From a virus (lineage: Duplodnaviria > Heunggongvirae > Uroviricota > Caudoviricetes), in the IMG/VR virus record IMGVR_UViG_2541047437_000023: DNA of 5,118 nt; one strand, 5' to 3'. The notes under the pieces were generated by a model that was given only the letters and a program-made list of their open reading frames with translations, had not been told where the DNA came from and made no database searches. The position numbers and the translations under genes were made by a program. This document shows, piece after piece, positions 2,053 through 3,990 of this stretch; the first letter of the stretch is position 1; each line of letters begins with the position of its first letter.

Positions 2053-3990
2053 ATGACATTTAAACATTATGATGTTGTCAGGGCGGCGTCGCCGTCAGAC
2101 CTTGCGGAAAAGCTGACACACAAACTGAAAGAGGGCTGGCAGCCGTTTGGTAGTCCGGTGGCCATAACCCCTTATACCCTGATGCAGGCGATTGCCGCGG
2201 AGGGGGATGTGACCACGCCAGTGGTTGTGCCCGGCACGGGGGATGGTGGCTATCCGGGAGTGGTCACCACGGAGCCAGATTATTACTACGTTATTCCACT
2301 GGCCGGGCAGTCGAACGGCATGGCTTACGGTGAGGGGCTTCCTCTGCCGCAGACATATGACCGTCCTGACCCGCGTATAAAGCAACTGGCTCGTCGCAGC
2401 ACAGTGACGCCGGATGGCGCTCCCTGTAAATATAACGACATTATTCCGGCAGACCACTGTCTGCATGATGTACAGGACATGAGCCGTCTTAACCATCCGA
2501 AAGCTGACCTGTCGAAAGGTCAGTACGGAACCGTGGGGCAGGGGCTGCATATTGCCAAAAAGCTGCTGCCGTTTATACCGGCGAATGCGGGTATTCTTCT
2601 GGTTCCGTGCTGCCGTGGTGGTTCAGCTTTCACCACCGGGGCAGATGGAACATACAGTGACGTGACCGGTGCCTCAGAGAGTTCTACCCGCTGGGGTGTG
2701 GGCAGGCCGCTGTATAAGGATCTCATCGGTCGTACAAAAGCCGCGCTGGCAAAGAACCCGAAAAATGTGCTGCTTGCCGTGGTGTGGATGCAGGGGGAAT
2801 TTGACTTTGACGGAACGCCAGCAAATCACACAGCCCGTTTTACAGAAGTAGTGGAACAATATCGTACGGACCTTGCAGATATGGTGGGACAGTGCGCTGG
2901 TGGTTCTGCTGACGGTGTTCCCTGGATATGTGGAGACACAACTTATTTCTGGAAGCAGAAGAGCGAATCCACTTACCAGACGGTGTACGGCAGTTACAAA
3001 AACAAAACGGAAAAGAATATTCACTTTGTGCCGTTCATGACCGATGAGAACGGAGCAAATGTCCCGACGAACAAACCGGAAGAAGACCCGGATATTCCGG
3101 CATCAGGATATTACGGTGCGGCCTCCCGGACGTCGGCAAACTGGACGTCAGCAGACCGTGCGAGCCATTTCAGCTCATGGGCACGCAGGGGGATTATTTC
3201 TGACCGTCTTGCCTCAGCGATTCTTCTCCATGCAGGACGGACGGCTGAACTGGTGGGTGGGGAACAGGTTGTGATGCCGCCGGATGAGAAGCCGTCACCG
3301 GACACACCATCAACACCGTCAACGGACGGGAAATCAGTGACAACGCTGCTTTATTACCGTGCAACAGAGTCAGGTGGTTTACTGAATCCGCAGGGATGGG
3401 GAGCTGAAGGAGGGCGTGCATTGGTAGTTGATGATGCAGGTGCTGCAGGAGGTAAGGCGCTGAGGTGGACCAAACAGACAGGAAGTTCCTCGTGGTTTAT
3501 GCAGCATGATGCCGGTAATGGCGCAGACCTGCTGGAGAAGGGCGGGCTTATCAGTTGTCGTTTTAAAGTTGATGGCACACTGACAGCTAATCAGTACGCA
3601 CTGGCGCTGTACTGGCCGGTTTCTTCACTGCCTCAGGGCGTCACACTGGAAGGTAATGCCGGTCATAACCTGCTGGCGTCGTTTTACGTACAGAGCGATG
3701 CCACAGACCTTAATGTGATGTACCACAAGGGAAATGCTGGTCAGAACACGAAGCTGGGGTCATTCGGCGCATTTGATAACGAATGGCATACGCTGGGCTT
3801 CCGTTTTGCCGGTAACAACAGTATTGAGGTGACGCCGGTCATTGATGGTAAGGACGGGACGCCGTTCATGCTGTCACAGTCACCGGTCGGCACGTTTACG
3901 GCAGACAAATTGCGCGTGACCGATATCACTAGCGGTGCGACATATCCGGTGCTGATTGAAAGTATAACAGTGGAAGTGAATAACCCGTAA
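2053..3990 (+). CDS. nanS-p: Prophage-encoded sialate (9-O-acetyl-Neu5Ac) O-acetylesterase, NanS-p type: N-terminal DUF1737-like region + SGNH/SASA esterase domain + C-terminal putative carbohydrate-binding domain
   Basis: 645-aa protein starting at ATG 2053, with a strong SD AGGGGAGGA (2041-2049) at ideal spacing. The ORF-track start at 1996 is an unlikely upstream extension. SGNH block I appears as GQSN (nt 2305-2316, putative nucleophile Ser87) and a WMQGEFD block lies in the esterase core. A Pro/Ser/Thr-rich linker (PPDEKPSPDTPSTPSTDG, about nt 3280-3335) precedes a beta-rich C-terminal domain. The N-terminus MTFKHYDVV... matches my recollection of nanS-p paralogues located downstream of stx in EHEC prophages. 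Confidence 0.9.
   Translation: MTFKHYDVVRAASPSDLAEKLTHKLKEGWQPFGSPVAITPYTLMQAIAAEGDVTTPVVVPGTGDGGYPGVVTTEPDYYYVIPLAGQSNGMAYGEGLPLPQTYDRPDPRIKQLARRSTVTPDGAPCKYNDIIPADHCLHDVQDMSRLNHPKADLSKGQYGTVGQGLHIAKKLLPFIPANAGILLVPCCRGGSAFTTGADGTYSDVTGASESSTRWGVGRPLYKDLIGRTKAALAKNPKNVLLAVVWMQGEFDFDGTPANHTARFTEVVEQYRTDLADMVGQCAGGSADGVPWICGDTTYFWKQKSESTYQTVYGSYKNKTEKNIHFVPFMTDENGANVPTNKPEEDPDIPASGYYGAASRTSANWTSADRASHFSSWARRGIISDRLASAILLHAGRTAELVGGEQVVMPPDEKPSPDTPSTPSTDGKSVTTLLYYRATESGGLLNPQGWGAEGGRALVVDDAGAAGGKALRWTKQTGSSSWFMQHDAGNGADLLEKGGLISCRFKVDGTLTANQYALALYWPVSSLPQGVTLEGNAGHNLLASFYVQSDATDLNVMYHKGNAGQNTKLGSFGAFDNEWHTLGFRFAGNNSIEVTPVIDGKDGTPFMLSQSPVGTFTADKLRVTDITSGATYPVLIESITVEVNNP

Follow-up and report, generated by a model that had tools for sequence, protein, structure and literature searches.

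A prophage-borne nanS-p allele of Escherichia coli O157:H7 type: modules, predicted active site, probable late transcription and the relation of its DUF1737 domain to phage head genes

The window analysed here is a whole stretch of 5,118 nucleotides (nt) of tailed-phage DNA (IMG/VR virus record IMGVR_UViG_2541047437_000023), in which an open reading frame (ORF) at positions 2053-3990 had been described in a first-pass annotation, made from the letters alone, as a nanS-p esterase gene of three modules. The locus raises a question in three parts: whether this ORF is an intact sialate O-acetylesterase gene, whether its product works as a soluble enzyme or as a component of the phage particle, and how the gene is transcribed. 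The first part can be answered with high confidence: judged from its sequence, the ORF is an intact nanS-p allele, encoding a prophage-borne sialate O-acetylesterase. Published work already covers the gene with its domains and catalytic motifs, as well as its place in the late operon, in agreement with the annotation's own statement that the family was known, and the allele is essentially that of two reference O157:H7 genomes. The only lead beyond the literature found here is a link between the type of the N-terminal DUF1737 domain and the type of the phage head genes downstream.

The nanS-p gene, its modules and its predicted active site

The coding sequence, its ribosome-binding site, the modules and linkers of the protein and the conserved blocks of the catalytic domain are the following (E, expect value).

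2053-3990, + strand: nanS-p coding sequence, with the ATG at 2053 and the stop codon ending at 3990; 645 residues, 69.1 kDa
2044-2048, + strand: Shine-Dalgarno sequence GGAGG, four bases 5' of the nanS-p ATG, read from the sequence
2053-2220, + strand: module 1, DUF1737, residues 1-56, loop type 'W' (GSPVAITPYTLMQAIAAEG); Pfam PF08410 at residues 3-50, E 1.8e-15
2221-2268, + strand: linker 1, residues 57-72, rich in Gly, Pro and Thr; hypervariable, 19-25% identical to other alleles
2269-3225, + strand: module 2, SASA/SGNH catalytic domain, residues 73-391; matches to PDB 3PT5 and Pfam SASA
2305-2316, + strand: Block I, GQSN, residues 85-88; aligned to GQSNA 17-21 of NanS
2614-2631, + strand: Block II, RGGSAF, residues 188-193; the same motif as NanS 120-125 (PMC10792757)
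2788-2805, + strand: Block III, MQGEFD, residues 246-251; SASA-specific (H/M)QGE motif (PMC9487903, PMC10792757)
3163-3174, + strand: Block V, SHFS; R-A-SHFS at residues 369-374, aligned to R-S-SHFS of NanS with His301
3226-3336, + strand: linker 2, residues 392-428 (37 residues), interdomain stretch
3337-3987, + strand: module 3, DUF6645 lectin-like jelly roll, residues 429-645 (217 residues); matches to PDB 6YP6 and Pfam PF20350

The three-module architecture was borne out by the profile check that the annotation had proposed, in which DUF1737 and SASA, and also DUF6645, were recovered from Pfam above the curated cut-offs, as well as by the matches to PDB 3PT5 and 6YP6; moreover, PHROG 143 matches NanS-p end to end. 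The gene pattern is not due to chance, the Pfam, PDB and PHROG matches lying far past threshold and the gene recurring at high identity in hundreds of genomes. The ribosome-binding site that the annotation called strong is the GGAGG listed above. Two in-frame TTG codons lie further upstream (1996, where the longest mechanical ORF begins, and 2023), neither of them with a Shine-Dalgarno sequence, and the homologues share the same start methionine (MTFKHY, MAFKHY or MSIKHY). Neither a signal peptide nor a membrane segment was found in NanS-p, the Kyte-Doolittle maximum being 1.38 with a 19-residue window.

The window shares 99.9% identity with the chromosome of the O157:H7 strain PV15-279, in which the coding sequence corresponds to RefSeq WP_000143000.1 and its two nucleotide differences from the window are synonymous. 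The gene recurs at 99% identity or more in 306 complete E. coli genomes, EDL933, Sakai, O55:H7 and O103:H2 among them, up to 15 places matching nanS-p being present per genome of enterohaemorrhagic E. coli (EHEC), while the whole 5.1-kb arrangement reaches at least 99% identity in 2 of 5426 complete genomes. In the Sakai prophage Sp6, ECs_1527 (equal to WP_000023170.1 of EDL933) agrees with the window protein in 643 of 645 residues, the sole differences being residues 2-3, T-F in the window and S-I in the Sakai Sp6 and EDL933 copies. The same genes follow in Sp6 (DUF1378, DUF826, holin S and ydfR), with 99.9% DNA identity from 2060 on, whereas upstream Sp6 carries Q, TerB remnants and DUF3927 and the window a methylase gene, tRNAs and a small RNA (sRNA) pair as in Stx phages. 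Because the downstream DNA is thus Sp6-like and the upstream DNA Stx-phage-like (91% identity to Stx2a_WGPS2 over 1-1570), the comparison places a recombination joint at the first nanS-p codons (window 2053-2060).

As regards the catalytic domain, residues 73-391 match NanS (YjhS, PDB 3PT5) with an E of 2.5e-119 and 57.5% identity over 318 columns, and Pfam SASA (PF03629) is recognised at residues 83-275 (E 5e-11; 43.1 bits against a cut-off of 24.8). The blocks of NanS are GQSNA 17-21, RGGSAF 120-125, MQGEFD 178-183 and R-x-SHFS with His301, and the enzyme uses a main-chain carbonyl instead of an Asp as catalytic acid (PMC10792757). Ser87 of the window protein (TCG at 2311-2313), the serine of GQSN and the counterpart of NanS Ser19 in the alignment, is the predicted nucleophile, the coordinates given in the first-pass annotation being correct; Gln86 and Gly190 are candidates for the oxyanion hole, and His372 (codon 3166-3168) is the predicted general base. 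The residue three positions before this histidine is Arg, so that there is no triad Asp. Residues G85, Q86, S87, N88, R188, G189, Q247, G248, E249, S371 and H372 are invariant in 28 homologues, an alignment that is shallow (77-84% identity). The description of the nucleophile block as GQSN rather than GDSL is true of the sequence, but it does not stand as an allele-specific feature, because the SASA family as a whole is defined by GQSN and (H)QGE; in its members the Gln beside the Ser points into an 'inverted' oxyanion hole and Block III, (H/M)QGE, replaces the usual GxND Asn and positions the Gln in the solved structures (PMC9487903). At4g34215 (2APJ), CAC0529 (1ZMB) and Axe6A/B of Fibrobacter share the GQSN-type Block I, the (H)QGE Block III and the inverted oxyanion hole (PMC9487903); unlike the window NanS-p, they keep the Asp of Block V and are proposed acetylxylan esterases, some of them with CBM6 and not DUF6645.

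In the alignment with chromosomal NanS, residues 16-331 of the 3PT5 chain (337 residues) are matched, so NanS amounts approximately to the catalytic domain alone, without DUF1737 or the jelly roll. Its gene belongs to a sialic-acid gene set and not to a phage late operon. Blocks I, II, III and V are identical in the two proteins, which also share the Ser-His arrangement lacking Asp (PMC10792757).

Homologues suggest that the enzyme would remove the 9-O-acetyl (and 7/8-O-acetyl) groups from 5-N-acetyl-9-O-acetylneuraminic acid (Neu5,9Ac2) and from mucin sialoglycans, and that the product, N-acetylneuraminic acid (Neu5Ac), would then be open to catabolism. According to a review, the nanS-p alleles of EDL933 all gave active Neu5,9Ac2 esterases, which also de-O-acetylate mucin glycans (PMC8065619). 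As NanS-p carries no signal peptide, its substrate would be reached only through phage-mediated lysis or on virions. A natural substrate other than host sialic acid, either an O-acetylated bacterial polysaccharide (O-antigen or capsule) or an acetylxylan-like glycan, appears improbable, given that the catalytic domain is so close to that of NanS, whose best substrate is 9-O-acetyl Neu5Ac (PMC9487903), and that the EDL933 NanS-p enzymes, one of them the copy with 643 of 645 identical residues, are reported to cleave Neu5,9Ac2 and the O-acetyl sialic acids of mucin and to support growth on Neu5,9Ac2 (PMC8065619, PMC8319020). What speaks for such a substrate is that acetylxylan is used by some SASA/CE6 members (PMC9487903), that deacetylation of the lipopolysaccharide O-antigen has been raised in the review as an open possibility for NanS-p (PMC8065619), and that the identity between alleles ranges over 52-100% in the C-terminal domain versus 72-100% in the catalytic domain, which would fit varied targets.

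The linkers are the most variable parts of the protein, with 19-32% identity to other alleles. The linker rich in Pro, Ser and Thr that had been noticed at about 3280-3335 corresponds to the run PSPDTPSTPST at residues 414-424 (nt 3292-3324), within linker 2; residues 397-428 comprise 6 Pro, 4 Ser and 4 Thr. The tripeptide SSP is absent from the whole window protein, whereas in the 933W type it forms part of SISSP (residue 57) and PSSPS (residue 414). Such motifs have been tentatively linked to autoprocessing in gp84, the NanS-p of phage phi24B (bioRxiv 10.64898/2026.04.10.717836), and, if processing needs them, the window allele would stay full length.

The separate, beta-rich C-terminal domain of about 220 residues that had been foreseen has 217 residues and is homologous to a crystallised lectin-like jelly roll, the C-terminal domain of phi24B NanS-p (PDB 6YP6; residues 429-644, E 9.5e-97, 69.6% identity); furthermore, Pfam DUF6645 (PF20350) matches residues 494-611 with an E of 7e-71. 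Residues Y515, Y520, Y545 and F615 map to Y510, Y515, Y540 and F611 of vb_24B_21, so that all four aromatics proposed there as a sugar site (PMC10462455) are conserved. When the domain was modelled alone and compared with known structures, 6YP6 ranked first in Foldseek (E 1.7e-20), although with a template modelling (TM) score of only 0.46 and from a model of low confidence, so that no support for sialic-acid binding came from the comparison. The next matches, with TM-scores of 0.25-0.40, were the sialic-acid-binding domain of Vibrio cholerae sialidase (2W68), alginate lyases of polysaccharide lyase family 7, calreticulin and the Hc domains of clostridial toxins. The domain can be described, from its homologue 6YP6 and not from our own poor model, as a probable concanavalin-like jelly roll; the Foldseek matches carry little weight and are not evidence of sialic-acid binding. 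Three points count against the picture of a sialic-acid esterase with a glycan-binding domain behind it: the predicted local distance difference test (pLDDT) value of the C-terminal model was 55.8; the full-length AlphaFold2 model, built on the 28-sequence alignment, had a mean pLDDT of 39 and was unusable for the active-site geometry or the DUF1737 fold; and glycan binding by the C-terminal domain is a proposal for which, in the words of the review, there is 'no experimental evidence' (PMC8065619).

The DUF1737 module and the type of phage head

The N-terminal module had been given no function in the first-pass annotation; capsid docking is assigned to it in a 2026 preprint on phi24B, which is not peer reviewed. 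In phi24B virions, gp84 is among the strongest bands, running at approximately 70 kDa when fresh and at approximately 35 kDa after storage, and its DUF1737 domains form hexamers that sit as plugs in the hexon at the centre of each capsid face, where they are anchored by Tyr42 (bioRxiv 10.64898/2026.04.10.717836). The window DUF1737 is homologous to this domain, which plugs the esterase into the centres of the capsid hexons.

The NanS-p proteins of 933W, phi24B (vb_24B_21/gp84) and Min27 have the same three modules and 645 residues and are encoded in the same place, between the moron slot and the lysis genes. Their SASA domain is 86.8% identical to that of the window, and the four sugar-site aromatics are shared; the differences lie in DUF1737 (58.9% identity), in the linkers (19-32%, with the SSP motifs absent in the window) and in the C-terminal domain (69.6%). 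The DUF1737 loop of the window is 3 residues shorter than that of the 933W/phi24B type (GSPVAITPYTLMQAIAAEG versus GSALISTAGYGAEFIQPVVSEG), and its Tyr41 adjoins, in the alignment, the position of the Tyr42 anchor of phi24B. The head genes also differ, a 402-residue podovirus capsid protein being encoded by 933W, phi24B and Min27 and a 641-residue protease-capsid fusion (Pfam Peptidase_S78 and Phage_capsid) by the prophage that holds the window, in which no capsid protein of the 933W type was found.

In IMG/VR loci (L006-L163) and in reference phages, types were assigned to the DUF1737 loop, to the C-terminal domain and to the head genes that follow, giving 37 non-identical typed loci, which were treated as independent though they are not so phylogenetically. 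The types and their pairing were as follows.

Head type A: 553-residue large terminase and 641-residue protease-capsid fusion; the window's prophage, phage 2851, Stx1a and Stx2c phages
Head type B: 933W/phi24B type (T=9 podovirus)
Head type C: lambda-like
Head type D: 706-residue ClpP-capsid fusion
DUF1737 loop B: with head type B (8 loci) and A (1)
DUF1737 loop X/X2: with head type D (11)
DUF1737 loop W: with head type A (5), C (11) and D (1)

The loop type carries 1.29 bits of information on the head type, out of an entropy of 1.95 bits (permutation p<5e-5; p=0.004 when only unique combinations are counted), with an excess over the null of 1.07-1.10 bits. Much less is obtained from the controls: 0.38 bits from the type of the C-terminal domain (p=0.15; an excess of about 0.1 bit), and, as excess over the null, 0.38 bits from the 250 nt upstream and 0.12 bits from the 950 nt downstream. 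The 933W-type C-terminal domain, moreover, is found with all four head types. Two of the 37 loci (L010 and L123) are exceptions to the pairing, L123 combining a type-B domain with intact type-A heads, and all the GenBank phages typed in both lists are concordant (12 of 12: seven W with A, five B with B). A strict one-to-one rule between DUF1737 and head was considered and rejected, loop W occurring with three head types and L123 being mismatched.

Whereas the flanking DNA is reshuffled on either side, the N-terminal module stays associated with the head genes, a pattern that fits a capsid adaptor. We propose, tentatively and as something short of a probable reading, that DUF1737 is a swappable adaptor matched to the head of the phage, its loop variants being specificity types; type B may go with 933W-type heads, type X with the 706-residue ClpP-capsid fusion, and type W with the 641-residue fusion and with lambda-like heads. 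If this were true, long-tailed lambdoid phages would, like phi24B, carry NanS-p on their capsids, and the esterase and lectin domains would form a payload cassette recombining freely behind the adaptor. Likewise, the many nanS-p copies of EHEC would be virion parts of different phage lineages and not redundant metabolic genes, and particles bearing a mucus-active enzyme would have a bearing on the spread of Stx and related phages in the gut.

The same observations bring in a wider possibility, namely that NanS-p is primarily a virion component, held by DUF1737 on the capsid of its own phage, the feeding of the lysogen being a side effect. The displayed esterase and lectin might then serve in sticking to mucus or moving in it, or else in stripping O-acetyl groups that block adsorption. 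We regard a primary role on the virion as conceivable but less likely than not; for it, the abundance and hexon position of gp84 in phi24B, the information in the loop type compared with its controls and the concordant GenBank records all speak. Nevertheless, the pairing is loose, as seen from the three partners of loop W and from the type-A heads of L123; the window loop at the position of the phi24B Tyr42 'tooth' is shorter by 3 residues; the SSP motifs proposed for processing are missing; and the preprint awaits peer review. The window's own prophage, furthermore, is unable to make particles. It lies on locus L001 (1-29117, the window being 12001-17117) and is defective, with one copy of IS1203 interrupting the lysozyme gene and another in the replication region, a frameshift in the portal gene and a truncated replication gene. 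Because the insertion sequence splits the lysozyme gene and the portal reading frame is shifted, display on virions is unlikely in this prophage, where only a role as soluble enzyme can apply. The enzymatic reading preferred here is, in any case, compatible with a role on the virion.

About 20 loci encode relatives of some 685 residues in which an unrelated N-terminal domain of about 115 residues (MSDSKWKMLSAMPGEFSVKVAGG...) takes the place of DUF1737 before the SASA and jelly-roll domains (among them L055, L056, L058, L059, L061-L065, L067-L070, L073, L078 and L079), some of them in decayed lambda-like prophages. This alternative domain gave no match in Pfam or PHROG.

The host prophage, the leader and probable late transcription

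The late region of the host prophage runs in the order Q, methylase, tRNAs, empty stx slot, sRNA pair, nanS-p, DUF1378, DUF826, holin S and ydfR, the gene for the Q-type antiterminator (DUF1133 and Phage_antitermQ) ending 393 nt before the start of the window. The prophage lacks stx and carries the paa adhesin gene and the hokD toxin gene. The neighbours of nanS-p and the elements of its leader within the window are listed here.

34-60, + strand: hairpin (34-51) with T-run; terminator scan, fold -10.5 kcal/mol, z -2.6
198-1256, + strand: N6/N4 DNA methyltransferase gene, a late-region moron; Pfam N6_N4_Mtase E 2.4e-43, RefSeq annotation
1297-1372, + strand: tRNA-Ile (anticodon CAU; ileZ); RefSeq and Stx-phage records, Rfam tRNA 70.9 bits, called Met(cat) by ARAGORN
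1373-1439, + strand: decayed argN tRNA remnant; alignment with argN of Stx2a_WGPS2 and Min27
1453-1529, + strand: tRNA-Arg (UCU; argO); ARAGORN, Rfam 71.4 bits
1571-1609, no strand assigned: empty stx slot of 39 nt, where Stx2a_WGPS2 has 1341 nt including stxA and stxB
1639-1847, + strand: STnc100 sRNA gene; Rfam RF02076, 175.2 bits (gathering threshold 47), full length 1-206
1816-1837, + strand: terminator hairpin of STnc100; terminator scan
1849-1908, - strand: anti-sRNA of the AgvB/AsxR family; Rfam AgvB 56.6 bits (gathering threshold 56), AsxR 46.8 bits
1873-1856, - strand: terminator of the anti-sRNA; terminator scan
1932-1964, + strand: hairpin with T-run resembling an intrinsic terminator, between the anti-sRNA gene and nanS-p
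4138-4320, + strand: DUF1378 gene, conserved neighbour; Pfam E 5.8e-40
4358-4627, + strand: DUF826 gene, conserved neighbour; Pfam E 1.2e-34
4703-4918, + strand: holin S (P21 class II/pinholin type), start of the lysis cassette; Pfam Phage_holin_2_1 E 1e-32

With blastn, window positions 1-1570 correspond to 1501-3084 of locus L002, which is Stx2a_WGPS2 (91% identity), and 1610-1696 to 4426-4512 (86%). The argN remnant, which was not called by ARAGORN or Rfam, has lost its anticodon arm by a 12-nt deletion and bears several substitutions.

Together with the two copies of IS1203, the split lysozyme gene, the frameshifted portal and the truncated replication gene, this decayed tRNA might be taken to mean that nanS-p is a silent relic, intact but never expressed. 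Such a reading is very improbable, as it would leave beside it a full-length ORF with all its catalytic motifs kept, a coding sequence whose only two differences from PV15-279 are synonymous, an allele conserved at 99% identity or more across the 306 genomes, and Q, holin and ydfR genes that are still intact.

The best reading, not proven, is that the gene is expressed by Q-dependent late read-through, because a Q gene lies upstream, no promoter-like site was found in front of the gene, and co-induction with stx2a has been published. The nanS-p gene is co-induced with stx2a by mitomycin C (PMC10462455) and, under norfloxacin, z1466 belongs to the most strongly induced genes (PMC8065619), this induction-linked transcription being published for alleles of Stx2a phages only (PMC10462455, PMC8065619). 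Transcription would most likely start at pR', RNA polymerase modified by Q reading through the hairpins at 34-51, 1816-1837 and 1932-1955; that at 34-60, 3' of the antiterminator gene, is probably the late terminator tR'. The terminator placed at 1934-1964 in the first-pass annotation is real: the hairpin at 1932-1955 has 10 pairs (7 of them G-C) and is followed by TTTTTCGTTTT, the folded stretch reaching -19.5 kcal/mol with a z of -2.8. The annotation's further statements, that no promoter is evident between the terminator and the ribosome-binding site and that this suggests expression by read-through of the late operon, also agree with our results, the scan of 1956-2052 being empty.

The alternative is that nanS-p has a promoter of its own, or some Q-independent expression from the leader, and that uninduced lysogens make the enzyme. 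Several observations lean that way and count against read-through as the sole source of transcript. Growth of lysogens with Neu5,9Ac2 as their only carbon source has been reported, and this implies that some expression occurs where no deliberate induction is applied (review, PMC8065619), and basal nanS-p transcripts have been detected by quantitative PCR (PMC10462455). The consensus scan found no sigma-70-like site on the + strand between 1956 and 2052, but such a scan may miss weak or non-sigma-70 promoters, and it did not locate pR' between Q and the window. Moreover, the block 1909-1975, which holds the hairpin, must by its position also hold the minus-strand promoter of the anti-sRNA, a predicted dual role that would make the region transcriptionally active (PMC4104026). 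On the other hand, that same + strand stretch held no sigma-70-like site, the promoter-like sites in the whole window number 2 against a mean of 3.8 in shuffled sequences, the basal signal may stem from spontaneous induction in some cells, and expression rises with mitomycin C in parallel to stx2a (PMC10462455). An own promoter is for these reasons considered unlikely, and late read-through is retained. A promoter-like site on the + strand at 1636-1664 was also considered as the driver of nanS-p and rejected, being itself within the STnc100 match and having two terminators downstream of it.

Finally, the sRNA pair in the leader, and the membership of the hairpin in a block that is conserved jointly with the anti-sRNA, had been overlooked in the earlier reading. 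The STnc100 and anti-sRNA genes are convergent, an arrangement already described (PMC4104026), the ORF of that description being nanS-p, and the score of the anti-sRNA lying just above the gathering threshold. In 23 of 77 loci, 933W-type phages among them, the block 1909-1975 is kept approximately 145 nt upstream of nanS-p, with 92-100% identity, and the hairpin block and the anti-sRNA are kept at approximately 145 and 205 nt upstream in 21-23 of the 77, across otherwise different prophages. The 3' part of the anti-sRNA is conserved, and its target is probably different from those of AgvB and AsxR, because its 5' seed, CGAUAAAAAUGACAAUGCA, is unlike both. The practical value of these results is one of annotation: the gene can be labelled as NanS-p sialate O-acetylesterase, with Ser87 and His372 as predicted catalytic residues, and the two sRNA genes of its leader can be added.

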